A stretch of DNA of 64,000 nucleotides from an uncultured Clostridia bacterium (GTDB taxonomy: Bacteria; Acidobacteriota; Aminicenantia; UBA2199), in the NCBI GenBank assembly GCA_964633415.1, contig CAZWFY010000009.1:7389-71388 (forward strand). The letters run 5' to 3'. Under the pieces are notes generated by a model. It was not told the origin of the DNA. It saw only the letters and a list, made by a program, of their open reading frames with translations, and ran no database searches. Each line of letters begins with the position of its first letter. The first letter of the stretch is position 1. Below, in pieces: positions 17,511 to 58,283 of this stretch. The translations under genes were made by a program, and so were the position numbers.

Positions 17511-17531
17511 TCCTAAAATTATATATAAAAT

Positions 17532-18503: not shown

Positions 18504-20532
18504 TCAGCTTGTTGATCTTTTCTATTATCTTTTTTTGTTTAGGCATTATCGCAAGGGATTTTTTCCATATTCCGAGAGCTTGATCTCTTTTGCCCAATTT
18601 AAGATAAGCATCACCAATAGAATTTAATATATCAATGTTTGTCCCTGTATAATCAAGAATCTTTCTGAAATATTCTATTGCCTTTTCATAATCTTTTAAT
18701 GCCATAAGCGAATAACCCATAACCTGATAGAAATTATAGCGTTGATTAGTTTTGAGAAATTTTGTTCCGATTGAAATGTTTTTTCTGTGTTGCCCCAATA
18801 AAAAGAGAATCTTACAATAATCATATGCAATTATACTATTCCTTGGATTTTTATAGTAGGATTCTCTTAATATCTTATATCCTTTCAGATAATTTTCGGA
18901 ATTAACATATTGGTTCCCTATTGTATTGGAAATATATGGGTCATTCTTTAAGTTGGATAATGAAATATTCCATGCTCTCTTAATTATTTTATTAAGCGGA
19001 ATTATAAAAGGAACTGTTTCCACAGCGATAATTTTACCTTTAGAGAACAATTTTACTTCAATTTCATAATAGGAAGGTTTGAAACCCTTCAGATCAAACG
19101 AATGGAAAACATTAATATTCTTCGGGAAATTTAAAATTTCCAATTTATTTTTTTTAATAGCAACTAAATCTTTTTTCAATGAAATCAATACATAGCTTCC
19201 GTTATAATCATTCTCATTCATACCGATTATTTGACAATACACATGCAATTTATCATTTTGTGAAAAATCATTTTTAGGAGACATAACCATCTGTTTATTG
19301 TTAATTAAAAACGGCTTGAGTATATTTCTATTATTCTCTTTTATCTCATATGACAGGATAGGTTTCATAATTATAGGAGTTTTAGGATTGGGAATAACAA
19401 CTCTTTTTTCCATAGATGTAAACTCTTTGGAAACAACATTTCTTATTAAAATATTAATATCATATTTTCCTTCGATCAACGGAAACATATCCTGGAAATT
19501 AAAAAGTTTATTATAAATAGATGAAAGTTTTTTTACATCTATTGAAACGGGAACTTTTTTACTGAAACTGTAAACAACCTTTTTATTCTCATTGATAGCA
19601 CTACCTATCACTTCGAGAGTGGAATAGAGTTTGTCATCACGTCTCTCAAGAGAAAGCTTTTTAGGTTCGATCAGATAGTGAACAAAAAATATTCCGTTAT
19701 CATCTCTTATTACACTTATCTTCGAGCTGTTTGGAATATAATTTGTTGAATATTCCACATCTATATACTCTTTATACTTCAACAATTTTGATGCATAAGC
19801 TGTATTTATCCTCTTAGTAGGGGCTTCCACTACTCTTTTCTGGATAAGAATATCGGAAGCCATAGTCGGTTTTCCAAAAGAATTTATATCACCCTCTATG
19901 AGATTTAAGGATACTTTTGCCACATCCGGATCTATTCTAACCAGCTCATTATACGATTTCTTTGTATCACCAGTACTTCCTTTATAATGCATAAGTAGGG
20001 AAGCCGGACCATTTTGAATCGGACTATACAATACATAGTCACCGCTATTATACGGCTTGAAAAAAACAACGTTAAATGCATTAGGAAGCCCGTACTTCGC
20101 AAGCCCCTGATAATACCAGATAACAATCGGTCTCAATTCAGTCTCATGTTCATATCTTAAAATCGATTTCGGCTTACCAAGTGTTATATATATCCTCCCC
20201 ATTTCCGTTTTCCATCCGGGAGTGGGTGTACCTCTTCCGAAAGTATCGGTAGCATATTTCAGTCGTTTATAATGTTCATTTTTATATTCATTGATTATTG
20301 TATTATGATTCGGATCTCTGTTTTTCCAGAAAGCATTGATAAACATATCTCTCTGCAGGTCGGTCTCAAGCATTTTAAAAATTTTTCTTTCAGCCTTTGT
20401 GATTATATAAGCTACATCTTTCTCCAACCATTTTCTATATCTTAAACCGAGTTTATGACTTTTTTTTGCCGGTATTAAAAAATTAACCGAAACAACAAGA
20501 ATAATCAGTCCGAATAAGAATCTCCTTTTCAT
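18472..20532 (-). CDS. GWxTD-domain protein with C-terminal TPR repeats (paralog of the downstream gene)
   Basis: Signal peptide. GWKTEMGRIYITLGKPKSILRYE motif in the same position as in the neighbour. C-terminal TPR-like repeats (AIEYFRKILDY..., ALGIWKKSLAI...). Confidence 0.65.
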   Translation of the reverse strand: MKRRFLFGLIILVVSVNFLIPAKKSHKLGLRYRKWLEKDVAYIITKAERKIFKMLETDLQRDMFINAFWKNRDPNHNTIINEYKNEHYKRLKYATDTFGRGTPTPGWKTEMGRIYITLGKPKSILRYEHETELRPIVIWYYQGLAKYGLPNAFNVVFFKPYNSGDYVLYSPIQNGPASLLMHYKGSTGDTKKSYNELVRIDPDVAKVSLNLIEGDINSFGKPTMASDILIQKRVVEAPTKRINTAYASKLLKYKEYIDVEYSTNYIPNSSKISVIRDDNGIFFVHYLIEPKKLSLERRDDKLYSTLEVIGSAINENKKVVYSFSKKVPVSIDVKKLSSIYNKLFNFQDMFPLIEGKYDINILIRNVVSKEFTSMEKRVVIPNPKTPIIMKPILSYEIKENNRNILKPFLINNKQMVMSPKNDFSQNDKLHVYCQIIGMNENDYNGSYVLISLKKDLVAIKKNKLEILNFPKNINVFHSFDLKGFKPSYYEIEVKLFSKGKIIAVETVPFIIPLNKIIKRAWNISLSNLKNDPYISNTIGNQYVNSENYLKGYKILRESYYKNPRNSIIAYDYCKILFLLGQHRKNISIGTKFLKTNQRYNFYQVMGYSLMALKDYEKAIEYFRKILDYTGTNIDILNSIGDAYLKLGKRDQALGIWKKSLAIMPKQKKIIEKINKLNGRNGNADKK

Positions 20533-20589
20533 TTTTCCTCCTGCACATTCGTTAAAATTATAGCATTATATCTTGAAAAATCAACAAAT

Positions 20590-22242
20590 TCAGTTTGTTT
20601 CGGATGTGATATATTTCATGTCGGATTTATCGGTAAGAAGATCAATAACAGAGATAACACAACTATATTCACCTTCTTTAAATTTAGGAAAATTTATAGA
20701 AATTGAAAATATTCTATTCTCGGATACCAATATTTTCTCATTATCAAATCTTACATTTCCAAAACCATCGGTTATTTTTATATGAATCTTTAGTTTTCCG
20801 AGTTTTTTCTCACCTTCTTTTCTCAGATAAAAACCGTTTATTGAAATTTTTAATTTTTTTTGATTGAAAACAGCATTCAATATTTTTACCGCCGGTATTT
20901 TTTTTTCCATTTTTTTAAAATAATTTTTTATATAATCCTGTCTTATATTGTTATCAAAAACAACTCTATATTTTTCATCGGACGTCACTACTTTTATTTT
21001 CCCCTTTTTATCATCCGAAGGAGAATATGTCAGCATGTATAAAATATCCTTTTTCTTTACAATTTTATCTAAGGATTTTTTAATATTATTGGAGGATATA
21101 AGATCACCGCCTGTTATCCTTGTCAATTCCCTGAAATTATTTTCAATGTCGGTTGAGACTCTTTTATACTCTATATCATTAGAAAGAAGACTGTTTTGGG
21201 TTTTTATAAATATAGTTTGAAAAACCGCACCTACTTTATAAAACAGCTTGGAAATCTGTTTGGTCGGAAAATCCTGACTGACATTAAGCGAGAGATTTAT
21301 CCTTACCAATAAACTTGAAAGGATCTGTGCATAAGATATATCCTCCCCTCTGTCACTTATCCGAAGGTTGTTTATTAGATTTTTCACATAATTAACTATT
21401 TCCCCGGTCGGTTTTAATCTTGGGAACAACTCCATCTGATAAAAATTCACAACCCATTTTTCCCCTTTGATTCTATCGAGATATTGAGCAAAATTATAAT
21501 AACCGTTAATACTGGGAGTCAGATATCTTCTCTTATATTCATTCCATAATTTAAGGTAATCCCCAAGCATTTTTCTTACTTCATCCGCCGGATTAGACCT
21601 TCCTCCTCCCGAAGCTAATTCAGACCTCATTCTGTAAATAATTGTCTTTATCTTCTCAACTTCCGTTACCTGTCTCATTCTTGCTTTTTTACTCTCTTTG
21701 GAGATCATTTTTAATACAAGTTCGAGAATCCTTTTCTTTCCTTTTAAATTATCAAGTATAAAGGTTCTGTTATTGACAAAGATCATCAACCTGTCTCTCT
21801 CTCTTAAAACTTTTTCAAATATATAAGTAACTCCCTCCCTTAGAGATTTGTTCAATTTAGTCGTTCTGAATACGAGAACAAAATATCTTGAAGATTCTTT
21901 TCTTTTCTGAATTATTTCACTGTTTTCTTTAAGATCATCAACAATAATCGTTATACTTTTCCTTTTGATCCAGAAACCGTTGATCTTCTGCAATTTTCCG
22001 TCTTCATACAGTTTAAAATCCCCTTTTTTAAGTTCATCAATAGGTTTCCCTTTATAAAACACTCTTACGGGAACTTCGACATTAACGACGGAAACATTTT
22101 CAACAATTCGCTTCTCTTTTTTTTTAATTGATCCGTATAAACTCAAGGATAAAACAGATATGATCAGCGACAATAAAATAAAGCTTTTTTTTAAGTTAAA
22201 CTTATCTCTTTCCATTTGAGATTTTATACGTATTGCATTCAT
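20590..22242 (-). CDS. Hypothetical membrane-anchored protein, N-terminus resembling VWFA-related (TIGR03436-type) domain
   Basis: Single N-terminal TM. VSVVNVEVPVRVFYKGKPIDELKKGDFKLYEDGKLQKI resembles the conserved start of vWFA-related Acidobacterial-type proteins. The rest is unassigned. Confidence 0.4.
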   Translation of the reverse strand: MNAIRIKSQMERDKFNLKKSFILLSLIISVLSLSLYGSIKKKEKRIVENVSVVNVEVPVRVFYKGKPIDELKKGDFKLYEDGKLQKINGFWIKRKSITIIVDDLKENSEIIQKRKESSRYFVLVFRTTKLNKSLREGVTYIFEKVLRERDRLMIFVNNRTFILDNLKGKKRILELVLKMISKESKKARMRQVTEVEKIKTIIYRMRSELASGGGRSNPADEVRKMLGDYLKLWNEYKRRYLTPSINGYYNFAQYLDRIKGEKWVVNFYQMELFPRLKPTGEIVNYVKNLINNLRISDRGEDISYAQILSSLLVRINLSLNVSQDFPTKQISKLFYKVGAVFQTIFIKTQNSLLSNDIEYKRVSTDIENNFRELTRITGGDLISSNNIKKSLDKIVKKKDILYMLTYSPSDDKKGKIKVVTSDEKYRVVFDNNIRQDYIKNYFKKMEKKIPAVKILNAVFNQKKLKISINGFYLRKEGEKKLGKLKIHIKITDGFGNVRFDNEKILVSENRIFSISINFPKFKEGEYSCVISVIDLLTDKSDMKYITSETN

Positions 22243-22320: not shown

Positions 22321-23919
22321 ATGTTTAAGATTAATGATGATCATAAAAGAGAACTTGAAAAAAAAGAGATAACCGTACAATCTTTTTTTTCTCAACTTGA
22401 GAAAATCAGTACCGGCAGTTCATATATTGAACTTGACAGACCTTCTCTTCCGTATGACGGGATAAAGATTTTATCAACTGAGGAACAAGAGAGAATGATC
22501 TCCATATTTTCAAAAAAAAGCAGATTTTATAAAATATCTAAATTTGTTCCCGCTTCCGGTGCGGCAACGAGAATGTTCAAAACGCTGTTCGAAATAAGAC
22601 ATTTGTTGGGATCAAATTCATTTTCAGACAAAATTTTAATGGAAAATTATGAGAATAATCATACTTTAGTGGAATTTGAAACATTTTTAAAAGGAATATA
22701 CTTAAAAAAATTTGCTTTCTCAGAAGATATTTATGTGATTCTAAAGAAAATTGGATTGGGAACCAAAGAGGTTTTGCAAAAAGAAAATTACAGTATAATT
22801 GTCAACTCGATTCTCGATAAAAATGGACTCGACTATGGTAATACACCTAAAGCTCTCATAAAATTCCATAAATATCAGGATACGGGAATAACACCTCTTG
22901 AAGAACACATAAGCGAAACCTGCCTCTATATGGGAAACGATAATCGTGAAAAAATGATTCATTTCACTCTATCTGATCAATATAATGATAAAATTTCTCT
23001 TTTTCTTGATGAGTTAAAAATAAAGTTCTCAAAGATAGGAATGAATTTTTCATATGAAATATCTTCTCAAAATAAAAATACGGATACGGTTGCAATTGAT
23101 CTTAAAGGTAATCCCGTCACTACTCCCGAAGGTAAATTACTCTTCAGACCCGGAGGACACGGCTCTCTCCTCTATAATTTAAACAATATGGACAACGATC
23201 TTATCTTTATCAAAAACATTGATAACATCACAACTTATGATCGTATAAACAGCTCTGTCAATTATAAAAAAATAATGGGTGGAATGATAATTGAGATAAG
23301 AGAAAAAGTTTTTAAATATTTAAACCTTCTTCCGGAGATAAGAAAAGATTCTGAAATTATAAACGATATATATTGTTATTCAAAAGATGTATTGAATATC
23401 GGTTTCAGTAAAGATTTCTCCGAATTTGATATTAATAAAAAAAAAGAGATATTGAAAAACAGACTCAATCGACCTATCAGAGTTTGCGGTATGGTTGAAA
23501 ACAGAGGAGAACCCGGTGGAGGACCATTTTGGATAAAGGGAAATTCCGGCGAAAACATTCTGCAAATCGTGGAAAAAGCTCAGATCAACACATCCGACCT
23601 GAAGCAGATGGAAATCTTAAAAAATTCAAAATATTTTAATCCCGTTGATATCGTCTGCAGCATAACTGATTTCAAAGGGGAAAAATTTCACCTCCCGGAT
23701 TTTTCAGATGAAACGAAATATTTTGTTTCCGAAAAAGATTATAACGGAGAAAAAATCAGAGTATTGGAACATCCCGGACTATGGAATGGAGCAATGTACG
23801 ATTGGATCACTATCTTTGTCGAAACACCTGTTGAAACTTTCAACCCTGTAAAAAGTGTTAACGATCTTTTGAAGAACAATCATATTCCCAAAAAAAATAT
23901 ATGTTTTTATTCAAGATAA
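22321..23919 (+). CDS. DUF4301-like protein, putative UGPase-type nucleotidyltransferase fold
   Basis: PASGAATRMFK, IFIKNIDNITTYD, RPGGHGSLLYNL and ENRGEPGGGPFWIK resemble the UDP-sugar pyrophosphorylase motifs LNGGLGTxMG, SNxDNL, PxGHGD and EGG, respectively. Confidence 0.45.
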   Translation: MFKINDDHKRELEKKEITVQSFFSQLEKISTGSSYIELDRPSLPYDGIKILSTEEQERMISIFSKKSRFYKISKFVPASGAATRMFKTLFEIRHLLGSNSFSDKILMENYENNHTLVEFETFLKGIYLKKFAFSEDIYVILKKIGLGTKEVLQKENYSIIVNSILDKNGLDYGNTPKALIKFHKYQDTGITPLEEHISETCLYMGNDNREKMIHFTLSDQYNDKISLFLDELKIKFSKIGMNFSYEISSQNKNTDTVAIDLKGNPVTTPEGKLLFRPGGHGSLLYNLNNMDNDLIFIKNIDNITTYDRINSSVNYKKIMGGMIIEIREKVFKYLNLLPEIRKDSEIINDIYCYSKDVLNIGFSKDFSEFDINKKKEILKNRLNRPIRVCGMVENRGEPGGGPFWIKGNSGENILQIVEKAQINTSDLKQMEILKNSKYFNPVDIVCSITDFKGEKFHLPDFSDETKYFVSEKDYNGEKIRVLEHPGLWNGAMYDWITIFVETPVETFNPVKSVNDLLKNNHIPKKNICFYSR

Positions 23920-34871: not shown

Positions 34872-35936
34872 TCAAATTTTTATAAGGTTATATTCCGTAT
34901 TACCGAATCCCAACTCTTTCGAATGATCAAGTTGAACTCTATAAGGGATATCGTATGAAACCCCGGACAATTTTTTCCCTATTCTCTCCTCAACAAGATC
35001 AAGTGATGCCGAATCAATCGCTACCGGGTCACTTGATATAAGAATACCTATATCCGGAGCGATCTGTTCATAAGAATTCATACAATCACAATCTTTTGAG
35101 ATATTTGTAAGAAAATTAATAAAGATCATCTTTCCCATCTTCGTTTTACTAACCCCCAAAGCATGTTCCACTATCTTCTTTTGAAGTCTTTCGTAACTTT
35201 CACTCCAGTTATATCCGACTGCATCAAATCTACAGACAGCAAGGCATTCACCGCAACCTATGCAAACGCTTTTATTAATATAAGCTTTCCCTTCAACAAA
35301 CGATATAGCTTCCACCGGGCACCACTTTATACACTCTCCGCAGGCAGTGCAGAATTTTTTTTTTATTTTCGGTTTTGATGTAGAGTGCTGGACCATCTTT
35401 CCTCTACGGCTCGAAAGTCCCATTCCAAGATTTTTCAGAGTTCCTCCGAATCCTGAAACAATGTGCCCTGTAAAATGTGTAACAACAACTAATGATTGTA
35501 TCTTTTCAACAAGTGAAGCGATAGAAACTTTATTGTAAAATTTTCCTTCTATCGCTATCTCAATTTCTTCATCTCCCATCAATCCGTCGGACATAATTAT
35601 CGGCATTCCCGTATTCTCTATTGAAAATCCCTGTCTGTTTGCATGCATAATGTGATCTATCGCATTTGTTCTGTTCCCTCGGTATAGTGTCGATGTCTCC
35701 GTTAGAAAAGGCAAACCACCCATATCTTTTATAAGCTCTCCAATTACTTTTAAATAGGTCGACCTTACAAACCCACTCTTCGGACCTTCTCCGAAGTGAG
35801 TTTTGACGGCAACCATATCTTTTTTACTGATAAATGAAAAAAAAGAATTTTCCTTTAAGCTCTTTTTAAATTTCCCAATAAGACTATCTTCGGATTCACT
35901 TTCTTTGATCTCAATAAAAAATACTTTAGAACTCAT
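34872..35936 (-). CDS. DUF362-domain protein with 2x[4Fe-4S] ferredoxin insert
   Basis: CTACGECIKWCP and CIGCGECLAVC motifs within a DUF362-like scaffold. Confidence 0.6.
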   Translation of the reverse strand: MSSKVFFIEIKESESEDSLIGKFKKSLKENSFFSFISKKDMVAVKTHFGEGPKSGFVRSTYLKVIGELIKDMGGLPFLTETSTLYRGNRTNAIDHIMHANRQGFSIENTGMPIIMSDGLMGDEEIEIAIEGKFYNKVSIASLVEKIQSLVVVTHFTGHIVSGFGGTLKNLGMGLSSRRGKMVQHSTSKPKIKKKFCTACGECIKWCPVEAISFVEGKAYINKSVCIGCGECLAVCRFDAVGYNWSESYERLQKKIVEHALGVSKTKMGKMIFINFLTNISKDCDCMNSYEQIAPDIGILISSDPVAIDSASLDLVEERIGKKLSGVSYDIPYRVQLDHSKELGFGNTEYNLIKI

Positions 35937-36025: not shown

Positions 36026-38329
36026 TTAAAGATCTTTTCTGTTTTCAATAACATCTTCTATTTTATCTCTTAATCCCTCTACTAAAGCTTTAATCTCACT
36101 TAAAGATGCCCCTCTTTTATAAGCAGCATCAAGATTCCTTGAAACCGTTTCAAGCTCGGTAAGGCTGAAATATCCCGCATTTCCCTTTAAAGTATGTGCG
36201 ATCCTTGCAATCATCTCATTTTCTTCTGAAATTTTATCTCTACTTATCACCTTATTTAAAAAGCTCCTTTTCTCACTCAAATCTTCCAGAAGTACATTGA
36301 ATGCTTTTCCGAATAAATTATCCTTTTTCGGAATTCTGTCCGTATCTCTCTGTTTAATCATTTCACTTTCACTGTTACTCTCTGCCGACTCAAAAAGCCT
36401 GTACATCTCAGAGAATAACAGTTCAAAATCTATAGGTTTCGACATGAGAGAATCAATGATATCACTAAGGTCATCTCCATTCTCAAACTTTAGATCCGCC
36501 GTCAAAAGGATTATAGGTATTTTTACCTTCTTTTTCCTTAATTCTATTGCCGCTTCCATACCTGATAATTCAGGCATCTTATTATCCATTATTATTATAT
36601 CCGGATTATAAAAATCAATTTGATGCAATAACTCTTTTCCATCATTAACAAGTTTAACAAAATTAAAGCCTCTCATCCTCAAAGCTTCATTTAATAATTC
36701 CCGATTAAAAATATCATCTTCGGCTACAACTATTCTTCTGTTTAAATATTTGTCAATATCTTCACGATTGATGGAATTTTTCTTGTCAGACAATTTATAT
36801 TCTATTACCTCCGTTCTATTTGCAGGCAATGTTACGGAAAACTTGGAACCTTTTCCAAAACCCGATTCAAAACTGATCTCACCACCCATTAGTTCTGCAA
36901 GATTTTTTGAAATCACAAGACCGAGACCGGTTCCGGAACTATTAATCATTAATGAATTCTTGTCTGAAAAAAACGGGTCGAAGATCCTTTGCTTTGAATC
37001 CTCTTCAATCCCAATCCCCGTATCAGTCACTGAAAACTTTATAACTTCGGATTCAGATATATAATCTATATCAAGTGTCACCGATCCTTCTATAGTAAAT
37101 TTTAATGAGTTTGAAAGGAAATTTCCCAATATCTGCTGTATTCGCCTCATATCTCCATAAACTGTTTTAGGTACGGTCTCTCTTTTTTTTATCTCAAACC
37201 GTACAGCTTTTTCACTAAAAAGATGATCAAATAACGAGGAAATATTTTCAATAAGATCATCTACTTCATATTGTTGAATATTCAATTTTATTTTTCCCGC
37301 TTCAATTTTTGAAACATCAAGAATATCATTAATCAGGTTTTCTAAAATCTTCCCCGATTTTTTTATATTTGAAACATATTTTTTCTGCTTATCATTAGTA
37401 TCCGTTCCGGTCATAAGATCAGCAAATCCATTTATGGCATTTAAAGGAGTTCTCATATCATGAGACATATTCGCTAAAAATACAGACTTGAATTTTACAG
37501 CCTCTTCCGCTCTGTTTTTCTGAATTTCCATCTCATTATATGCTGACTCCAATTCCTGCTCCATTTCAACCCTTAATGTAATATCTTTTTTAATTGCACC
37601 GTAACCGATTATTTCATCATTATCAAGTTTGACCGGAAAAATTGTTGCTTCTTCTATAAAGTCTTCACCGTTTTTTTTTCTGTTGGTAAATTCACCCTGC
37701 CAGACTTCTCCCGAACTTATTGTTTCCCACAGATATTCAAAATATTTCTTCGGATACTTTGCAGCCGGAGATTTCAGAATCCTCGGATTCTTTCCTATAG
37801 CTTCATCAAATGAATATCCCGTATTTATTTCAAAAAAACGATTAACATACTCAATATTTCCTTTTGTATCCGTTAGAACAATTGAATCTGCGGCTTGATC
37901 GACAAGCGTTGCCATTCGTGCCAACTGGAGTTCGGATTGTTTGCGTATCGTTATATCTTCGATTATTCCATCTATTATAAAAGATTTATCATCAATATAT
38001 CCTGCAATTTTTTCCGTCAATTTAACCCAGATCATATCTCCGTTCTTCTTCTTTAGTTTGATTTCACTACCATGGACCTCATTATTGTTTTTTAATATTT
38101 CAATCAAATTATTCCTGTCTGAGGATTCACAATACAATTCGGAAACTTTGATATTTAGCATCTCTTCCTCGGAATCATAATTCAAAATATCAACCATAAA
38201 CCTATTTACTTTTAAAAACTTTCCTTTTGAAGTAGTTCTGAAAATCCCTACCGGAATATTAGAGAGGATGGTCTCAAAATTTTTGATCTCTTTTTTATTG
38301 AGATCATCAATCTCTATTTTTTTTTTCAT
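36026..38329 (-). CDS. Hybrid sensor histidine kinase: PAS domains, HisKA/HATPase, receiver and C-terminal HPt
   Basis: H-box MSHDMRTPLNAINGF. G-boxes GTGLGLVISK. REC IVVAEDD...IIIMDNKMPELSGMEA. HPt IAHTLKGNAGYFSL. Confidence 0.8.
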   Translation of the reverse strand: MKKKIEIDDLNKKEIKNFETILSNIPVGIFRTTSKGKFLKVNRFMVDILNYDSEEEMLNIKVSELYCESSDRNNLIEILKNNNEVHGSEIKLKKKNGDMIWVKLTEKIAGYIDDKSFIIDGIIEDITIRKQSELQLARMATLVDQAADSIVLTDTKGNIEYVNRFFEINTGYSFDEAIGKNPRILKSPAAKYPKKYFEYLWETISSGEVWQGEFTNRKKNGEDFIEEATIFPVKLDNDEIIGYGAIKKDITLRVEMEQELESAYNEMEIQKNRAEEAVKFKSVFLANMSHDMRTPLNAINGFADLMTGTDTNDKQKKYVSNIKKSGKILENLINDILDVSKIEAGKIKLNIQQYEVDDLIENISSLFDHLFSEKAVRFEIKKRETVPKTVYGDMRRIQQILGNFLSNSLKFTIEGSVTLDIDYISESEVIKFSVTDTGIGIEEDSKQRIFDPFFSDKNSLMINSSGTGLGLVISKNLAELMGGEISFESGFGKGSKFSVTLPANRTEVIEYKLSDKKNSINREDIDKYLNRRIVVAEDDIFNRELLNEALRMRGFNFVKLVNDGKELLHQIDFYNPDIIIMDNKMPELSGMEAAIELRKKKVKIPIILLTADLKFENGDDLSDIIDSLMSKPIDFELLFSEMYRLFESAESNSESEMIKQRDTDRIPKKDNLFGKAFNVLLEDLSEKRSFLNKVISRDKISEENEMIARIAHTLKGNAGYFSLTELETVSRNLDAAYKRGASLSEIKALVEGLRDKIEDVIENRKDL

Positions 38330-38372
38330 TATCGGAACAGATTATAATTATCTTTCAGCATATATAAAATTG

Positions 38373-39005
38373 CTAATCAAGAGACCTTTTAATTTCAGAA
38401 ATAGCAAGTTCCACTTCGGCTCTTTCATCTATGTTTTGAGGAGCAATGATCAGCAGATAAAAATTTACTTCCCGTAATTTAAAACGCCTTAGAACGATCT
38501 TATCAAGATTATTAATATCCATAGATATATTATTAGCTTCACTCTGATGTAAAAAAGATTCGGCTTTTTCAAGAGATTCACCTAGAATAGATGCATAAGC
38601 GGCAAGAACCTGATCTTCAGCAGGGCTATTGTAAACCGCCAATGGCAAACCATCCTCATCCGCAATAACAGCTCCCTCAAAGGAACCTCTTTTACACATT
38701 ACAGCCAGCAATTTATAGAGAGGATCATCACCGTCAATTTCAAAATCAATATTTTTTTCAACCGTTTTATTTTCAGATGAATAATCCTTAAAAACATCCG
38801 GATCTTCAATATTTTCGGACAACTCTCTATTGGCATTGAAATCATCGTGTTTAATAAAATTTGTTGAATAATTTACTTCCGTTAACTCCGACTTAAAGAC
38901 AGATGAAGAATTAATACCTCCAACGGTTTCTTCACCTCCCGATAACTCCTTCAGGAGATCTACCGTTTCGGAAAGATCAAAAGAGTCCGGCAATAGGTTC
39001 GTCAT
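38373..39005 (-). CDS. Roadblock/LC7 (MglB-like) domain protein with acidic N-terminal extension
   Basis: C-terminal KRGSFEGAVIADEDGLPLAVYNSPAEDQVLAAYASILGE is Roadblock-like. The first ~100 aa are acidic and low-complexity. Overlaps the upstream parA-like gene by 29 nt. Confidence 0.5.
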   Translation of the reverse strand: MTNLLPDSFDLSETVDLLKELSGGEETVGGINSSSVFKSELTEVNYSTNFIKHDDFNANRELSENIEDPDVFKDYSSENKTVEKNIDFEIDGDDPLYKLLAVMCKRGSFEGAVIADEDGLPLAVYNSPAEDQVLAAYASILGESLEKAESFLHQSEANNISMDINNLDKIVLRRFKLREVNFYLLIIAPQNIDERAEVELAISEIKRSLD

Positions 39006-39786
39006 TTTCTTCTCCTTTCAAAAGTTTGCTGTTCCTCTCCTGAAGTTCGAGGGCAAGATCAATAAATATACGCCCCTGTTCAGCTCCGTTTGGCATCAAT
39101 GAGACGGGTACGGCAAACATTCCGGCTCTTTCAAAATATTCATTAAACGGAATTACAGTTCTAAATAGTGTCTTTTCGGGGAACACATCATTAATCTTTG
39201 AAAATATATCAGACTCAATTCTACTGGAAGAATTAAACATATTAATAAGAACTCCTTCAAGATCAAGAGTCGGGTTTTTTTCATCCCGGACCATTTTCAT
39301 AGCTTTTAAAAATAGTGGAATGGTTTTCAGTGAAAAAGTTTTGCAATTTACCACAAGAATAGTCGAATCACTCACGGAAAGGAGAGAAGTTACAACCGAC
39401 CCTATTCCCGCAGGTGCATCAATAATAATATATTTATATTTATCCGAAAGACCTTTAATTGCATTCCCGAGATCTCCATTCCTTGCCATATTCTCAATAA
39501 GATCTATATCCTTAGGTTCGGGACTTCCCATACCGAGAATATTCAGGAATTTATCCTTAGTCATTTCAACCGCACTTGAAATATCGGAACTTACTTTCAA
39601 AACATCTATTATCCCCAATTTAGTCCTTTTTTTCAGATTACTTGCAACAGAGATACCTCCTTGAGGATCACCGTCCACAAGTAAAACCGAGTTTCCCAGT
39701 TTTCCAAGAGTATAGGCAAGATTAAATGCGATAGTTGTCTTACCGACCCCGCCTTTCTGACTCGCAATAGTAATTATTTTTGACAT
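38977..39786 (-). CDS. ParA/MinD-family P-loop ATPase
   Basis: KIITIASQKGGVGKTTIAFNLA deviant Walker A and LLVDGDPQG. Confidence 0.8.
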   Translation of the reverse strand: MSKIITIASQKGGVGKTTIAFNLAYTLGKLGNSVLLVDGDPQGGISVASNLKKRTKLGIIDVLKVSSDISSAVEMTKDKFLNILGMGSPEPKDIDLIENMARNGDLGNAIKGLSDKYKYIIIDAPAGIGSVVTSLLSVSDSTILVVNCKTFSLKTIPLFLKAMKMVRDEKNPTLDLEGVLINMFNSSSRIESDIFSKINDVFPEKTLFRTVIPFNEYFERAGMFAVPVSLMPNGAEQGRIFIDLALELQERNSKLLKGEENDEPIAGLF

Positions 39787-39809
39787 TAGTATAACTCCGG
39801 TTTACATCT

Positions 39810-40718
39810 TTACCTTTTGAAAAATTCAAAGGGAAAATCATTATTGATCTGTAGGAGAGATTCAATATTCCCCTTTATATCTCCGTCCATAAGAACAATA
39901 AGATCATCTATTCCCATATAAGAATTTTTTTTTACATCTTTAATCCCGAGAAGAAACTCCATTTTTCTCGTTATCTTAATTTTTTCCGATCTTTTGGAAA
40001 AATCACTTAACATAGAATTACATTCATCAATGTAGGTAAAATTTTTCATTAGAATATTCATTATACCAATTTTTTCATTTTCTTGGAAATCTTCGGAAAT
40101 ATTTGAATAATCAACAATAAACCTACCCTTATTTAGAAAAAATATTCTGTTTAATGCTTTTTCTCCGGTAAACTTTCCGAATTTACAGGAGATAATAAAA
40201 CCATTTTTAACAATTAACTCAGCTGCCATATCCGGAAACTTTATTTTAGCGGATTTGCTACCCAGTTCCGCACTCTGAAGCAGATCTGCCAAAGGAAACT
40301 TTTCAAGATTTCCAGTTAAAAGCTCATCATTTATCCTGTTGGTTTTCGATCTCCTTATTGAAGCTTTTATTCTTGCTCTCAATTCAGCTTTATTAACAGG
40401 TTTTATAATATAATCATCCGCACCTATCTCAAACCCTTTAACTTTGACATCGGCACGGTCAACCGAAGTCAGCATTAAGATCGGAATATGAGAATATTTC
40501 GAATCGGATTTTATATCTTTTAATATTTCAATCCCATCCTTTCCAGGCATCATAACATCGAGAAGAATAAGATCCGGAAAAATCTCAGACATCATTTCAA
40601 TTCCCACTTTCCCGTTTTCAGCATTGTATACGATATAACCCGAATCAGACAAATATTCATCAAGAACTGCAACAGTAACTTTATCATCGTCAATTATCAA
40701 TATTTTAAGCTTTTCCAT
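39810..40718 (-). CDS. Response regulator: receiver domain fused to DUF4388 (PATAN-like) domain
   Basis: REC ILIIDDD...DLILLDVMMPGKDG...LTSV. C-terminal LTGNLEKFPLADLLQSAELGSKSAKIKF...GEKAL matches the DUF4388 consensus L.G.L..f.L.DLLQ. Confidence 0.65.
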   Translation of the reverse strand: MEKLKILIIDDDKVTVAVLDEYLSDSGYIVYNAENGKVGIEMMSEIFPDLILLDVMMPGKDGIEILKDIKSDSKYSHIPILMLTSVDRADVKVKGFEIGADDYIIKPVNKAELRARIKASIRRSKTNRINDELLTGNLEKFPLADLLQSAELGSKSAKIKFPDMAAELIVKNGFIISCKFGKFTGEKALNRIFFLNKGRFIVDYSNISEDFQENEKIGIMNILMKNFTYIDECNSMLSDFSKRSEKIKITRKMEFLLGIKDVKKNSYMGIDDLIVLMDGDIKGNIESLLQINNDFPFEFFKR

Positions 40719-40735
40719 TTGAATTTCGATTAATT

Positions 40736-41485
40736 CTATCCTTTAAAATCAAGATTTTCATCAAGCAGAGATACTCCGCACTTAAGATTTTCCAACCAAA
40801 TAAAGAACTTTTCAATATTTTCCTTTCCCGGCAATACCGCACCATGCTGAGGTGCAATCTGTTCTATATCAAGTTTTCTAACCATATTCACCCATTTTTT
40901 CAATATTTCATTTCCGGGAATAAATCTCTTATGAAAAATTTCCATATATTTTATATGTTCATCAAAATTTTCAACTCTATTATAATTCTGACCGAATGAA
41001 GCACCGAGATCTCCTGAAAAAAGTATCTTCGATTCAGGATCATATATTTGAAAATTAGCAGCAGAATGCATAAAGTGTGCAGGAATAACACTTAAATTCC
41101 TTTCTCCGACCTTTATTTCCATACCATCATCGGGAATAGGATTGATCCTTTTTGAAATATAATCATCAATCCCGAAATGCATGACAAATCTTGTCCAGTG
41201 TTCCGAAAGATATGCTTTGGCTTCGGTCAGCATCAGCCATGCATTACCGGAAGCAACAATATCCGGATCCTGATGTGAAAAAAATATATGTTTTAATTTT
41301 GAAACACTTACAACTTCCGCTATCTCCTTTATAAGCGATGAAAAAACTTTATGACCTCCGGGGTCAAGGATCATCGCCTCATCACCATCCACAATCACAA
41401 ATTGTGTCGCCTGAATCATACCTCCAACGGCAAGATCATCAAACATAACGCATTTATGTTCATTGTTTTGATAAAGTATTTCCAT
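40736..41485 (-). CDS. MBL-fold / flavodiiron-like di-iron domain protein (ODP-type candidate sensor)
   Basis: FFSHQDPDIVASG lies at the position of the MBL HxHxDH motif. Downstream His/Asp ligands (PAHFMHSA, SGDLG, PQHGAV) are spaced as in the FprA N-domain or ODP. Confidence 0.45.
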   Translation of the reverse strand: MEILYQNNEHKCVMFDDLAVGGMIQATQFVIVDGDEAMILDPGGHKVFSSLIKEIAEVVSVSKLKHIFFSHQDPDIVASGNAWLMLTEAKAYLSEHWTRFVMHFGIDDYISKRINPIPDDGMEIKVGERNLSVIPAHFMHSAANFQIYDPESKILFSGDLGASFGQNYNRVENFDEHIKYMEIFHKRFIPGNEILKKWVNMVRKLDIEQIAPQHGAVLPGKENIEKFFIWLENLKCGVSLLDENLDFKG

Positions 41486-41497
41486 GATATTCCCCTT

Positions 41498-41872
41498 TTA
41501 AAGAACAGAAAGAACCTTGGCGATCTCTTCGGAGGCTCTTGACATTCCAAGGAAGACAAGTCCCAATTTAGCTTCCGGTCTTGCCAGTGCAAGAAGAACC
41601 GAATGAGGTCCGGCTTCAGTAATAACAACATATCCGTTTTCTCCCTTAATGAAAAGCTGATTTATTTTTCCTCTTTTTAACTCTTCAGCAGCTTTTGCTC
41701 CCATATTTAAGATAGCTGCACTCATTGCAGCAACTTGAGTCTCCTCCGTTCCCTGAGGAAGTATATTTGCGATCATTAATCCGTCTTCGGAAATTATTGC
41801 ACTGGCTTCAAAATCGGTAGTACTCGACTGAAGTTTGATCAAAATATTATTTAATTCTTCCGGCTTTGACAT
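41498..41872 (-). CDS. Roadblock/LC7 (MglB-like) domain protein
   Basis: ASAIISEDGLMIANI...QLFIKGENGYVVITEAG...LALARPEAKLGLV is the canonical Roadblock pattern. 124 aa. Confidence 0.7.
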   Translation of the reverse strand: MSKPEELNNILIKLQSSTTDFEASAIISEDGLMIANILPQGTEETQVAAMSAAILNMGAKAAEELKRGKINQLFIKGENGYVVITEAGPHSVLLALARPEAKLGLVFLGMSRASEEIAKVLSVL

Positions 41873-42041
41873 CTTTCCTCCTCTTGATCTAAAAACTTTA
41901 ATTTAATTAAACTTTGTATTGATTACAATTGCAAGCTTCTAATTATTTATTTTAACAATAAAAGTCTGAAATGTCAAAAGTCCGTACATCAGCAAGTAGA
42001 TTGGTCTTGACCATATAATACCTAAGAATTATAATGGTTTT

Positions 42042-42709: not shown

Positions 42710-42901
42710 ATGATTGGAAGTCTCGGAATTTGGGAAATTTTATTAATTTTTGTTGTTATTGCACTACTTTTTGGCGGAAAGAAACTTCCTGAACTCGGCA
42801 AGGGGCTTGGAGACGGAATAAAAAACTTTAAAAATTCATTAAAGAAAGACACTGATGAAGATAAAGAGGAAAAACAGACCGAGAATGAGAAGGATAATTG
42901 A
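42710..42901 (+). CDS. tatA: Twin-arginine translocase subunit TatA/E
   Basis: [41 protein letters not shown] is a TM helix plus amphipathic helix typical of TatA. Confidence 0.85.
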
Positions 42902-43952
42902 AGAGGCAATAGAGAAGAGAAAGAAAAAACAGCTTGAGATTGAAAATATATTAAAAGATATCGGAGAGTCTATTGGAAAGTCTTCTTTTTTTAAAAGCAG
43001 AAAACGCCGTTTACAAAATCTTTTTTCAAAATTCTCCGAATCCCTTTTTGAATTGATAACCGCTCAGGATAGGGAGTGGGATGAACTCTCTAACAACCAT
43101 TATTCATCAATTTTTAATTCGCTCAGTTCTCAAATTGAAGATCTCTCGGCAAAATTTTCAAACTTTAAAACAGTTACCGGAAATTTTATTGACCTTGAGA
43201 ACAGGCTCGGAGAGTTGATAAAAAAAATTCCCGCCGATACCGGTGTTAAAGAGAAAAACGAATTAAAAAAAATTAAGGATGAGATATCTCCGGTTCAATA
43301 TTCGGATTTTGAAAAGAGATTCAGAGGAAATTCCGAAAAGATCTACGAGAGACAGGAAAAGTATATACAATATTTCAAAGGACAGCAGAATATACTCGAT
43401 ATAGGATGCGGAAGAGGAGAGTTTATCCAACTGCTTTCTGAAAATAATATTGATGCCGAAGGTATTGATATTTCTTCATCAATGCTTAAAGAGGCTAAGG
43501 GAAAAGGTCTGAAATGTAGTGAAGAAGATGCGCTTCAATTTTTAAAGAATAGAAAAGAGAATTCATTGGGAGGAATATTTTCAGCTCAAGTTATTGAACA
43601 CTTCCCTTCAAACTATCTGATTGAGATAGTTGCGGAATCACACAGGGTTTTAAGGAAAGGCGGAATAATTATTTTTGAAACACTTAATCCTCTTTCGCTT
43701 TTTGCTCTTACAAACATCTATTTTCTTGATATAACACATCAAAAACCGCTTCATCCGGAATTTATGAGATATCTCTTTAAGGCATATAATTTTTCAAACG
43801 TTGATATACTCTATTCGGAACCTCTGGATAAACACTACTTAGAGGAAATTCCGGTAGGAAACGGGATTGCGAAACAATTTAACTCAAATGTTGATAAACT
43901 TAATAAAATTCTGTTTTCCTCACCCGATTATGCTATTATCGGGGAAAAATAA
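42885..43952 (+). CDS. Coiled-coil protein with C-terminal class I SAM-dependent methyltransferase domain
   Basis: [15 protein letters not shown] motif I and IIFETLNP. N-terminal ~170 aa predicted coiled coil. Start uncertain; the chosen ATG overlaps tatA by 17 nt. Confidence 0.55.
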
Positions 43953-56083: not shown

Positions 56084-56845
56084 TTATAAAAAATATTCTC
56101 TGTAATATTTCAAAGATTTTTCAAGATCCGCCCTTGAATGGGGTTCAAGAGTAACGGTAAACCTGTTGGGAAGTTCTGACAATACACTCTTCACCTCCTC
56201 CCAGCAGATATCCCCTTCGCCAAGAGGAAGGTGGTCATCGCCGCTCCCATTATTATCGTGGAAATGAAAGTGAATAGGTTTTTCCGAACTCAGAAGTAAT
56301 AACCATTCCTTGAAAGGGATAGTTCCGAAAACTCTATGATGTCCAAAATCAAAACAGTGAATAAGATTATTGTTATTTATTCTTTTTTCGAGATCCAAAG
56401 CCATAACCGGTGTCTGATCCGCAATATTTTCAATTGCTACAAGAGGAGGAGAATAAGCCATGAGTTTTTTAAAGAAAATCGAAGAGTTTTTCAACCACAT
56501 ATCTTTATACTCTCTATAATATATATTATCAAAATTATAATGAACAACAACGAGATAGGAATTCCATTGTTTCCCCATCTCCATAACTTTTTTTAATTTA
56601 TTAAAACTAAGATCTCTTATTTCAGAATCAGACCCGCCTGTAGATATATCAAGGAAAGGGGCATGAATCGTATTTGATCCGAATTTCTTAAGTATCTTTG
56701 AAAACTTTTTTATTTCCTCTTCATCAATATCTTTTAATGTCTCTCCATCAAGATATATTTCCGGATTAATTCCGTTCTCAAAGAAAAATCTCCACTCATT
56801 AATAAAATTTGCGGCTTTTACTCTGACAAAAAGATCCTTAAACAT
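56084..56845 (-). CDS. Xylose-isomerase-like TIM-barrel protein (sugar phosphate isomerase/epimerase family)
   Basis: IHAPFLDISTG...YLVVVHYNFD...HFHFHDNNGSGDDHLPLGEG is the AP-endonuclease-2/TIM-barrel metal-site pattern. Confidence 0.55.
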   Translation of the reverse strand: MFKDLFVRVKAANFINEWRFFFENGINPEIYLDGETLKDIDEEEIKKFSKILKKFGSNTIHAPFLDISTGGSDSEIRDLSFNKLKKVMEMGKQWNSYLVVVHYNFDNIYYREYKDMWLKNSSIFFKKLMAYSPPLVAIENIADQTPVMALDLEKRINNNNLIHCFDFGHHRVFGTIPFKEWLLLLSSEKPIHFHFHDNNGSGDDHLPLGEGDICWEEVKSVLSELPNRFTVTLEPHSRADLEKSLKYYREYFL

Positions 56846-56850
56846 TTATA

Positions 56851-57219
56851 CTAATCCATTAGCTGTTCAAATTTAATTGACAAGTCTTTTACACTCAAAG
56901 GTTTCGGAATAAAATTTTCAACTTTTTTTCCGAATATTTTATCTTCAAGATACTGCTTGCCATATCCTGAAGTAAAAAGAATTTTGACATCAGGATATTC
57001 ACTTTTAAGGATCTCTCCAACTTCATTTCCCTTTAAGTCAGGCATTTCAACATCCAATAACACTAAAAATATTTTCCCATATAGTTCTCTAAACAGCTTT
57101 ATCCCGTCCTTTCCTGATGACGCCGTAACACAGTTGTAACCCATCATCTCAATCATCGCAGCACCGGTATCCCGGATTATTTTTTCATCATCAATAAGTA
57201 GGATAATTTTTTTTTTCAT
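56851..57219 (-). CDS. Single-domain response regulator (CheY-like receiver)
   Basis: ILLIDDE...VLLDVEMPDLKGNEV...ILFTSGYG carry the conserved Asp pocket, phospho-Asp and Thr/Lys positions. Confidence 0.8.
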   Translation of the reverse strand: MKKKIILLIDDEKIIRDTGAAMIEMMGYNCVTASSGKDGIKLFRELYGKIFLVLLDVEMPDLKGNEVGEILKSEYPDVKILFTSGYGKQYLEDKIFGKKVENFIPKPLSVKDLSIKFEQLMD

Positions 57220-57224
57220 ATCTT

Positions 57225-58283
57225 CTATTTTCTAATAACTCTTACACCTCTGATCTTCTGATCTACCGGAAACTCTCCGAGAAGAATATAACCGCTTTTC
57301 ATATTTTTCACAAGTACTTTCACCTTCACTCTTTCCCACTCAAATATATTGTCATAGAGAGACTGAAGAGATGAAACACTTATACCGAATTCAGCAGTTA
57401 AAGTGATCTTCTTACTCAAATCCCCGGGTTTTATCACTCTGTTTATCATTGGATAACCGCTCTGTTTTCTATCGCCACTCTTTTCAAAAGAGAAAACAGC
57501 GGAAAAAACAAGTTTTTTAATATCCGTATCACCTATGTTTTTTACTTTCAAATCAATTAAAGGATAAATAATAACATCACCTGCTTTTTGAATCTTATAT
57601 ATCCACTCACTCTTATAATTATCAACTTTTAAAGAACTTTTTAAATTTTCATCTTCAGCACTATCCAAATCAAGAAACTCTCTATTGCCTTTAATAACCT
57701 GTTTTACAGGATAAGTCCCACCGATCCTTGAAGGAGGTGAACCCTTAGTTCTTGCAAAAATCTTTACTCTCAATTTTTTCCAGTTTTCTAATTTTTCATA
57801 GAATGCCTTTACAGAAGAAGCAGTATAACCGTTAGCTCCCGATAAAACGATTTTCTCACTGATTTCACCCGGCTTGAGAGGATTCTGCATACTTTTGGAA
57901 TATCCTGAAGTATGAGTCTTTCCGGTCAGAACAAATTCAAAAACCCCCTCAAAATCTACGAATTGTAACGGTTCACTGCCAATATTTTTAACCTTTAAGG
58001 ATATAACAGGAACTATCTTGACCATAACATCTTTGAAATTAGTCTTAACTTCCCGCCATTCCGTTTCCTGCCAGACAATTTCCATTGATCTTCTTACCTG
58101 ACTGCTATTCCATGTGGATTTAAATGAAGTGACAATCACAATCGCAGCAATAAGAAAAGCGGCAATAAGAATAAAATTAATCCAATATTTAGGATCATTT
58201 ATCCTCTGCTTCAAATCTTTTTTTTCCCCGTTATATTTATTGAATATGGAATCATTGTCATTCATTATTTCCTCCGCCTGCAA
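57225..58283 (-). CDS. Hypothetical membrane-anchored protein with two internal repeats
   Basis: N-terminal TM. Two ~110-aa units share VxIxPxIxLKVKNIGxxxxxxxxFxxVFxF...KPGxxSxKIxLxxxxGxxxSSxxxxYxxxxxWxxxxVKxxxK. Confidence 0.45.
   Translation of the reverse strand: MQAEEIMNDNDSIFNKYNGEKKDLKQRINDPKYWINFILIAAFLIAAIVIVTSFKSTWNSSQVRRSMEIVWQETEWREVKTNFKDVMVKIVPVISLKVKNIGSEPLQFVDFEGVFEFVLTGKTHTSGYSKSMQNPLKPGEISEKIVLSGANGYTASSVKAFYEKLENWKKLRVKIFARTKGSPPSRIGGTYPVKQVIKGNREFLDLDSAEDENLKSSLKVDNYKSEWIYKIQKAGDVIIYPLIDLKVKNIGDTDIKKLVFSAVFSFEKSGDRKQSGYPMINRVIKPGDLSKKITLTAEFGISVSSLQSLYDNIFEWERVKVKVLVKNMKSGYILLGEFPVDQKIRGVRVIRK

Follow-up and report, generated by a model that had tools for sequence, protein, structure and literature searches.

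We describe a six-gene signalling cassette on the minus strand of a 64,000-nucleotide stretch of contig CAZWFY010000009.1 (assembly GCA_964633415.1, positions 7,389 to 71,388), referred to below as the window; the source is labelled an uncultured Clostridia bacterium and is placed by GTDB in the Acidobacteriota, Aminicenantia. The genes lie at 36026-41872 and encode, from 5′ to 3′, a Roadblock/LC7 protein (Robl1), an oxygen-binding di-iron protein (ODP), a receiver domain joined to a PATAN domain (REC-PATAN), a ParA/MinD-type ATPase (here ParA), a second Roadblock protein (Robl2) and a hybrid histidine kinase. Our main conclusion is that the ParA-type ATPase is the predicted nucleotide-binding partner of the Roadblock proteins, a conclusion that has strong independent support in that it is drawn from gene fusion and not from adjacency alone. 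The cassette as a whole is best explained as a self-contained cytoplasmic signalling module of anaerobes, consisting of six soluble proteins encoded by one tightly packed operon. A fuller scheme, in which a phosphorelay responsive to O2 or Fe(II) would control a Roadblock-bridged ParA-type nucleotide switch with a probably spatial output, seems to us about as probable as not; we have more confidence in its core, namely that ParA and Robl2 would work as a single physical unit, controlled by a two-component system for which ODP provides the input.

The fusions are found in sister systems. At locus L054, ParA and Robl2 are a single open reading frame of 401 amino acids. A frameshift artefact was considered as the cause and was rejected when a search with the fused protein returned about 70 clusters of 389-451 amino acids, which cover 97-100% of the fusion with identities down to 38%. 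The ParA-Robl2 fusions thus make up a real and diversified family, and assembly error is not their origin. At two further loci (L058 and L059), the gene neighbouring the ParA-Robl2 fusion encodes a protein of the arrangement REC-PATAN-Robl_LC7. Its Roadblock domain matches the hidden Markov model (HMM) of Robl1 (E values of 6e-14 and 4e-13) and does not match the HMM of Robl2, and the ParA-fused Roadblock domain matches the Robl2 HMM with E values of 1e-39 to 1e-51. Four separate proteins of the window are thus represented by two polypeptides at these loci, REC-PATAN with Robl1 and ParA with Robl2. Because of this collapse, and because Roadblock domains typically dimerise, the simplest reading is a Robl1:Robl2 heterodimer that would bring the regulator to the ATPase. 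An earlier note on the window, made from its sequence alone, had proposed that the ATPase may take the role of the small GTPase that usually accompanies Roadblock proteins. Both kinds of fusion considerably strengthen the part of that proposal that makes ParA the Roadblock partner; about 7 of 49 cassette ParAs have degenerate Walker A motifs, a point taken up below. Each element of the note that was open to checking was borne out, and the interpretation offered in it is, overall, partly supported, with polarity control and GTPase-like switching standing as hypotheses.

Robl2 (210 amino acids, 38373-39005) would not have been assigned with certainty from its sequence. The Pfam Robl_LC7 model scores 17 bits, below its cut-off of 23; PDB sequences searched with a profile yielded a single match, at E = 0.62; and hhalign against the single sequence of Robl1 returned a probability of 0.5%. 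An AlphaFold2 model built on 21 homologues has a pLDDT (per-residue confidence score) of 80-92 over residues 95-210, with the topology α-β-β-α-β-β-β-α. When compared with the PDB by Foldseek, its top matches were MglB, an Asgard Roadblock protein, LAMTOR and the C-terminal domains of Rag proteins (E of about 2e-6; target-normalised TM-scores of 0.66-0.77), and a Roadblock fold is thereby confirmed for the modelled C-terminal domain (38376..38723). The remainder of the protein consists of two parts. A conserved N-terminal peptide (residues 1-22, 38940..39005) has the consensus DSSEIQEAxxLFxEL in the family alignment, with E13 invariant and L21 nearly so, and is predicted by AlphaFold2 to form a helix over residues 12-21. 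It is followed by a disordered acidic linker (residues 23-94, 38724..38939, pLDDT below 50) that differs in length and composition among lineages and is acidic in that of the window, whereas the C-terminal domain is highly conserved in the family alignment. In the AlphaFold2 model the disorder covers residues 23-89. Residues 1-94 together hold 24 acidic and 7 basic residues (D/E and K/R; pI 4.05). The start of the gene overlaps the 3′ end of the ParA gene by 29 nucleotides, and a Shine-Dalgarno sequence (AAGGAG) is located inside the ParA gene, 7 nucleotides before the ATG, features that mark the two genes as translationally coupled. The earlier note had accurately singled out this protein as a Roadblock with a long acidic extension whose gene overlaps that of the ATPase. 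When 1.84 billion representative proteins were searched exhaustively, the family proved to have only 207 members, of which 165 matched at E ≤ 1e-10; Robl2 is thus a small clade with sharp limits and not a generic MglB.

Robl1 (124 amino acids, 41498..41872) is a single-domain protein recognised directly by Pfam (Robl_LC7, 63.5 bits). Its closest solved relatives are the Asgard Roadblocks 7f8m and 9jue (E = 1.6e-24 for an Asgard Roadblock), followed in third place by CvnB5 of Streptomyces (3leq, E = 4e-10), and MglB structures are matched only at E values of 0.007-0.06. By sequence comparison, Robl1 is nearer to CvnB and the Asgard-type Roadblocks than to MglB. The expectation of two Roadblock proteins held for the fold of both, by Pfam for Robl1 and by AlphaFold2 and Foldseek for Robl2.

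The ATPase (269 amino acids, 38977..39786) is of the deviant Walker A type, as had been supposed (Pfam AAA_31, 115 bits; CbiA, 70 bits). It contains SQKGGVGKTT with the signature lysine, VDGDPQG (Walker A′) and IIIDAPAG (Walker B). None of the curated NCBIfam subfamilies (MinD, chromosomal and plasmid ParA, BcsQ, FlhG/FleN, MipZ, Mrp) reached its cut-off, the best being minD_arch at 91 bits against 201.75. The best solved relative is ParA of Myxococcus xanthus (8ray, 110 bits). Where 8ray and 1wcv have PRNVRL(S/A)E, the window protein has IPFNEYFE, and the two arginine columns of Soj/ParA, the second of which we take to be R189 of Bacillus subtilis Soj, hold arginine in 2 of 49 and 0 of 49 cassette ParAs. 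A Soj-type mode of DNA binding is therefore not conserved, and with the PRNVRL arginines replaced we judged a Soj-like, nucleoid-binding ParA to be unlikely. No amphipathic membrane-targeting helix is evident in the protein. At the C-terminus it has a conserved acidic tail ending in G-L-F-COOH (residues 250-269, 38980-39039). The tail is missing from a short-tailed subclade (L022, L027, L030, L031 and L033) and is replaced by a linker in the ParA-Robl2 fusions. We observe that it resembles acidic-tail docking motifs.

The sensor, regulator and kinase can be assigned with some precision. What had been described as a metallo-β-lactamase or flavodiiron-like protein is more narrowly an ODP (249 amino acids, 40736..41485; PF19583, 243 bits, cut-off 27.2). 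Its alignment with the solved ODPs 6qrq and 6qnm is full-length (248 bits; residues 2-243 for 6qrq), the motifs HQDPD, PAHFxHS, FSGD and PQHG being identical, and across 44 cassette ODPs the metal-site motifs show a conservation of at least 95%. The protein is accordingly a predicted sensor of O2 or Fe(II). A passage of PMC7319448, citing Muok 2019, describes ODP as a sensor of O2 and iron recruited to chemotaxis and other signal-transduction operons. The REC-PATAN gene (39810-40718) has the fusion of receiver and DUF4388 domains that the earlier note had recognised. The receiver (residues 1-125, 40344..40718) matches Response_reg at 99.6 bits over residues 6-118 and has the acidic pocket, an invariant D54 and K106 conserved across the cassette family; the PATAN (DUF4388/PatA_N) domain (residues 133-302, 39813..40322) matches PF14332 over residues 135-232 at 33.6 bits (cut-off 25). 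Foldseek matches of the REC-PATAN model are dominated by receiver domains. The kinase (767 amino acids, 36026..38329) is a soluble protein of the order PAS-PAS-HisKA-HATPase-REC-Hpt, with all domains above the Pfam cut-offs, in agreement with the hybrid kinase and HPt output named before; its H-box (SHDMRTP), receiver aspartate and Hpt motif (HTLKG) are present in the sequence. Taken with the terminal receiver of REC-PATAN, the predicted HisKA, HATPase, REC and Hpt domains form a complete set for a His-Asp-His-Asp phosphorelay.

The six open reading frames are co-directional and packed as had been reported, with spacings in gene order of 12, 17 and 23 nucleotides, the 29-nucleotide overlap of ParA and Robl2, and finally 43 nucleotides. 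The gaps or overlaps of 3-29 nucleotides given earlier hold for the first four junctions and not for the last. A sequence at 41949..41977 on the minus strand, about 77 nucleotides upstream of Robl1 (TTGACA-17-TAAAAT with a TG extension, 11 of 12 matches), is the likely promoter of the operon, although promoter-like sites in the region are no more numerous than in shuffled sequence and the site is a consensus match only. All six proteins are acidic and lack a hydrophobic segment; the system is therefore cytoplasmic. No small GTPase is encoded in the 64-kb window, where the only P-loop open reading frames noted were MobB and LepA, and no small GTPase candidate was found within 10 kb on either side at any of about 50 related loci, the GTPases in a Pfam census of the flanks being of the EF-G/LepA type only. 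The absence of a GTPase, which had been remarked for the cassette itself, thus extends to the 10-kb surroundings of its relatives.

The gene set is conserved as a neighbourhood, and the refutation for which the earlier note had allowed, a lack of such conservation in related genomes, therefore fails. Loci were collected by a scan of species-representative genomes, which returned 48, and were tabulated with custom HMMs; the counts given here are over 43-52 loci. The exact ParA of the window occurs on several metagenome contigs, each with the same six genes. Homologues of Robl2 came from Aminicenantes/Acidobacteriota, Desulfobacterales and Thermodesulfovibrionales, and four distant neighbourhoods, from Desulfatibacillum alkenivorans DSM 16219, a metagenome-assembled genome (MAG) of the Thermodesulfovibrionales, a metagenome contig and an Acidobacteriota MAG, share the order Robl1-ODP-[histidine kinase]-REC-PATAN-ParA-Robl2 with the ParA/Robl2 overlap retained. 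The core of the cassette is present at about 50 loci in at least three phyla (Aminicenantes/Acidobacteriota, Desulfobacterota and Nitrospirota), among them two cultured strains, D. alkenivorans DSM 16219 and Desulfuromusa kysingii DSM 7343. Judged by their taxonomy, the hosts belong mostly to anaerobic lineages. ParA and Robl2 are adjacent or overlapping at every locus (the overlap is kept in L005-L008 and most others), and REC-PATAN is directly upstream of ParA at 45 of 49. Of the 43 loci that no contig end cuts short, 42 have Robl1 and 36 have ODP. A histidine kinase belongs to most cassettes, with variable position and architecture. The flanking genes are variable housekeeping genes. Conservation of content and order in such variable surroundings excludes a chance adjacency of unrelated signalling genes, in favour of which one could cite only that two-component genes are generally abundant in bacterial genomes; the retention of the ParA/Robl2 overlap across phyla and the domain fusions that join the components likewise leave this explanation with a negligible probability. 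An anti-phage defence function was also considered and rejected, PADLOC having given only weak matches to generic domains. Three loci (L011, L012 and L018) are in MAGs labelled 'uncultured Clostridia bacterium' and carry cassettes 40-47% identical to that of the window in the Aminicenantes-type order, which suggests that the taxonomic labels of these three bins may be unreliable.

Several variants show which parts of the cassette can be exchanged. Minimal forms (L017 and L018) have only Robl1, ParA and Robl2, plus a kinase. Four loci (L041, L042, L043 and L046) have the order histidine kinase-REC-PATAN-ParA-Robl2-Robl1, and a small stand-alone PAS protein follows Robl1 in the ODP slot in L041, L043 and L046, and also in L042 according to the custom-HMM table only. 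The sensor, as judged from gene content, is modular, with ODP in most loci and a small PAS protein in some. In others there are two ODP genes around Robl1, as ODP-Robl1-ODP (L007, L015, L021, L032, L036 and L044) or Robl1-ODP-ODP (L009); several of these loci are from Desulfobacterales, and in L007 a coiled-coil protein of about 267 amino acids precedes the ODP-Robl1-ODP group. Many loci of Desulfuromonadales and Nitrospirota, and some of Acidobacteriota, have after Robl2 an extra regulator of about 367-377 amino acids that is absent from the window, with a receiver, an N-terminal segment matching PATAN below threshold, and C-terminal TPR repeats (L006:10541-11650, L049:10384-11487 and L051:2429-3553, with equivalents in L019, L037, L039, L040, L047, L048, L050, L052, L053 and L056). 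The slot expected for the sensor is occupied differently again in the two loci with the double fusion, where a gene for a 205-amino-acid cysteine-rich protein lies between the REC-PATAN-Robl1 and ParA-Robl2 genes (L058:9211-9828, minus strand; L059:7343-7960, plus strand). The protein has no Pfam match and contains CPFGPS, SPFCSVHQP, LGCK and HMCCYY; it may stand in for ODP as a sensor of metal or redox state.

The surroundings of some cassettes point to oxygen. In D. alkenivorans, the cassette lies between genes for cytochrome bd oxidase, Rrf2 and rubrerythrin and genes for Fur, rubrerythrin, desulfoferrodoxin, rubredoxin and a flavodiiron protein. The ParA-Robl2 fusion abuts cytochrome bd genes in L057 and L054, a hemerythrin gene precedes Robl1 in L033, and two hemerythrin genes are nearby in L059. 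Such a neighbourhood is suggestive of a link between the cassette and O2, but is not universal. As a separate observation, the cytochrome bd genes and ParA-Robl2 fusion of L057 are near a gene for a 799-amino-acid REC-PATAN-PATAN-like-DegV protein (L057:14534-16933, minus strand), in which a PATAN regulator is, unusually, connected with a fatty-acid-binding DegV domain.

From these elements we suggest the following sequence of events. ODP would bind O2 or Fe(II) at its di-iron site, or a PAS protein would sense in the variants, so that O2, Fe(II) or the redox state would be the input. ODP and Robl1, its constant neighbour, would jointly modulate the PAS-containing soluble kinase. The kinase would phosphorylate the receiver of REC-PATAN, through its own REC-Hpt relay in the window and directly in other lineages. 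The Robl1:Robl2 heterodimer would hold REC-PATAN through Robl1 and the ATPase through Robl2 and so tether the one to the other, and the N-terminal peptide of Robl2 and the acidic GLF tail of ParA could be further elements of contact. The phosphorylation state of REC-PATAN might then alter the ATP-dependent dimer or monomer state of ParA, or its binding of partners, making ParA the output switch in the place taken by MglA or CvnD GTPases in classical Roadblock modules. There is precedent for a PATAN domain that binds an ATPase in PilB1 of Synechocystis (bioRxiv 10.1101/2021.06.11.447907). The target would be encoded elsewhere, and its likeliest class is a spatial process that is adjusted on exposure to oxygen, for example division-site or nucleoid organisation, or the placement of a motility or respiratory machine. 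Stated in full, the proposal is that Roadblock dimers regulate a SIMIBI-class ParA/MinD ATPase, that the heterodimer couples REC-PATAN to it, and that the whole works as an oxygen-responsive spatial switch in strict anaerobes without a GTPase; we advance it tentatively, its chance of being right in every part falling somewhat below one half.

Several observations weigh against this scheme. First, although the nucleotide motifs are intact in about 42 of 49 cassette ParAs, they are degenerate in about 7 (7-8). In L034, L035 and L045 the Walker A motif reads KGGVGQTA, with lysine changed to glutamine, and the Walker A′ aspartate is lost (D40A); in L023, L025, L026 and L028 the signature lysine is replaced by leucine or glutamine. 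Proteins that have lost the Walker A lysine or the Walker A′ aspartate are predicted to be unable to cycle ATP and may be scaffolds, and cycling is therefore not universally required. Second, the Robl2 peptide is acidic, whereas the ATPase-stimulating peptides of ParB, MinE and PomX are basic. Third, no pilus, flagellar, chemotaxis or division genes recur in the flank census that could be taken as targets. Fourth, oxygen-defence neighbours are found at only 5 of 52 loci (L005, L033, L054, L057 and L059). With regard to the first of these points, the sub-lineages with degenerate ParAs retain the rest of the cassette and have the appearance of pseudo-ATPase or scaffold versions.

An alternative that is unlikely, and yet survives better than the others, is that the cassette positions a cargo in the manner of ParA/ParB, McdA/McdB or PpfA/TlpT. 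The ATPase would form a gradient on the nucleoid or membrane, Robl2 would be the adaptor whose peptide stimulates hydrolysis, and the cargo, either the soluble complex of ODP, kinase and regulator or some other body, would thereby be spaced and inherited. ParA-like genes within signalling operons can position signalling arrays, and the cassette shares with ParA-ParB, MinD-MinE, McdA-McdB, PomZ-PomXY and PpfA-TlpT an ATPase of the deviant Walker A type, which keeps the signature lysine that sandwich dimers require, and a partner encoded immediately downstream in translational coupling. The partner moreover has the layout of an adaptor, a short conserved peptide at the N-terminus being joined through a disordered linker to a dimerisation domain. 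That domain, however, has the Roadblock fold, which we found in no described ParA partner, and the peptide is acidic and not basic. The approximately 70 covalent ParA-Robl2 fusion clusters are difficult to reconcile with a diffusion ratchet, for which the ATPase and the protein that stimulates it have to sit on different bodies. The Soj arginines required for non-specific DNA binding are replaced, the C-terminus is the acidic GLF tail with no membrane-targeting helix in evidence, and the Walker A motif is dead in several lineages.

It is less probable still, and in our view improbable, that the Roadblock proteins regulate, in the conventional way, an MglA-like GTPase whose gene lies at some other place in the genome, so that the cassette would supply an O2 input to an Mgl module with ParA as an accessory. 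The comparison is a natural one. The MglA/MglB systems of M. xanthus and Thermus, with MglC as a second Roadblock and RomR as an input, likewise combine two Roadblock paralogues with a P-loop NTPase and a response regulator; PATAN proteins are known neighbours of Mgl genes; and MglB is among the structures on which the Robl2 domain superposes. MglA homologues are found in many Desulfobacterota. Linkage of Roadblock and PATAN genes to MglA/MglB is frequent (PMC4316618), and 328 of 749 MglB homologues were classed as 'orphans' without a known partner (Wuichet and Sogaard-Andersen, PMC4316618). Against this explanation, no MglA was found within 10 kb of any cassette locus, and the NTPase that is present is a SIMIBI ParA/MinD deviant Walker A ATPase and not a TRAFAC Ras-like GTPase. 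Robl2 is fused to ParA and not to a GTPase, a fact for which the explanation does not account, and as a bounded clade of 207 representatives it always accompanies the cassette ParA. Robl1 has closer matches in CvnB and Asgard Roadblocks than in MglB (E of about 0.007 for the latter). The cassette further differs from MglA/MglB in the N-terminal peptide and disordered linker added to Robl2 and in its built-in ODP and histidine kinase.

The similarity of Robl1 to CvnB makes the Streptomyces conservon a second point of reference, since it too is an operon in which a histidine kinase (CvnA), a Roadblock protein (CvnB) and a P-loop NTPase (the GTPase CvnD) are brought together as a single signalling complex, with the DUF742 protein CvnC. 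No DUF742 protein or MglA-group GTPase is found among the six cassette proteins or in the flanking genes. The cassette has a soluble kinase in place of a membrane-bound one, two Roadblock proteins, REC-PATAN and ODP, and its hosts are Gram-negative anaerobes and not Actinobacteria. It would work in the manner of such Roadblock-NTPase modules, but because it has neither a GTPase nor a DUF742 protein, we do not assign it to the MglA/MglB systems or to the conservons.

Equally improbable is a last alternative, in which the ParA-like protein would be no spatial switch but an anti-activator of the FleN/MinD type, or an assembly chaperone for an oxygen-defence enzyme such as cytochrome bd. The relatives of ParA/MinD do include FleN and maturation factors of the Mrp/NBP35 type, for which the NCBIfam matches are weak only; cytochrome bd genes directly abut the fusion gene or the cassette in L005, L054 and L057, and sigma-54 activators neighbour the fused systems of L058 and L059. 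Such neighbours occur in a minority of loci, however, the scores for the MrpORP, ApbC and FleN models are far below the cut-offs, and the ParA sequence has no Fe-S-binding CXXC motif.

Returning to the Roadblock-bridged switch that we prefer, two of its components have counterparts in other described systems. The ODP belongs to the same full-length sensor family, with conserved metal-site motifs, as the ODPs that act with chemoreceptors in Treponema denticola and Thermotoga maritima. In the cassette, the downstream partners are the kinase, REC-PATAN, ParA and the Roadblock proteins rather than a methyl-accepting chemotaxis protein, and the constant neighbour of ODP is a Roadblock gene and not a gene for such a receptor. 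The cyanobacterial PatA-type regulators, which bind the pilus ATPase PilB1, likewise join a PATAN domain to a receiver, and in them contact between PATAN and an ATPase controls a spatial process. Their domain order (PATAN-REC) is the reverse of that in the cassette, whose neighbouring ATPase is of the ParA/MinD type and not a hexameric secretion ATPase of the PilB type, and there are no pilus genes near the cassette loci.

The earlier note had not recognised the cassette as a described system, and we found no paper on a system of ParA, Roadblock, PATAN and ODP in the searchable literature, the coverage of which is incomplete, so that absence there is no proof. To our knowledge, Roadblock/LC7 dimers have so far been seen only as platforms or regulators of small GTPases (MglA, Rag and CvnD) or as dynein subunits. 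A 2015 survey counted nearly half of the prokaryotic MglB/Roadblock homologues as orphans, having no GTPase gene beside them, and none of these had been characterised at that time (PMC4316618). For one clade of orphan Roadblocks the cassette gives a testable answer, namely that the nucleotide-binding partner would be a ParA/MinD-type ATPase. If this is correct, 'orphan' MglB-like proteins would receive their first functional assignment and a new class of ParA partner would be defined; a 25-year-old prediction that Roadblock proteins regulate NTPases would reach beyond TRAFAC GTPases to SIMIBI ATPases. In sulfate reducers, metal reducers and Aminicenantes, ODP, as a sensor of O2 or Fe(II), would moreover stand upstream of what may be a spatial regulator. 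How obligate anaerobes reorganise on exposure to oxygen is poorly understood. Experiments are feasible, because the cassette is carried by the cultured strains D. alkenivorans DSM 16219 and D. kysingii DSM 7343.

Finally, we note some features of the window around the cassette, in which no tRNA genes or Rfam elements were found. On the same strand, 89 nucleotides downstream of the kinase, is a gene for a DUF362 protein with two 4Fe-4S motifs (34872-35936). It was considered as a seventh member of the cassette and rejected, since it is kept only in contigs of the same species (L001-L003) and not in L008 or other loci. On the other side, a 63-amino-acid TatA/B/E gene at 42710-42901 on the plus strand is inferred from the source annotation at L001:6886-7077. 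It overlaps the start of a 365-amino-acid methyltransferase open reading frame (42855-43952), and the long N-terminal extension of the latter may be over-called. Farther away, a run of genes on the minus strand (16488-22242) encodes secreted and TPR proteins, including two GWxTD-domain proteins and a 550-amino-acid protein without a Pfam match; it is adjoined at 22321-23919 on the plus strand by a gene for a DUF4301 protein with a very high score (584 bits). A lone single-domain receiver (56851-57219) lies within 56084-58283 on the minus strand, between a 352-amino-acid protein without a Pfam match and a xylose-isomerase-like TIM-barrel protein, and may be another small signalling unit.

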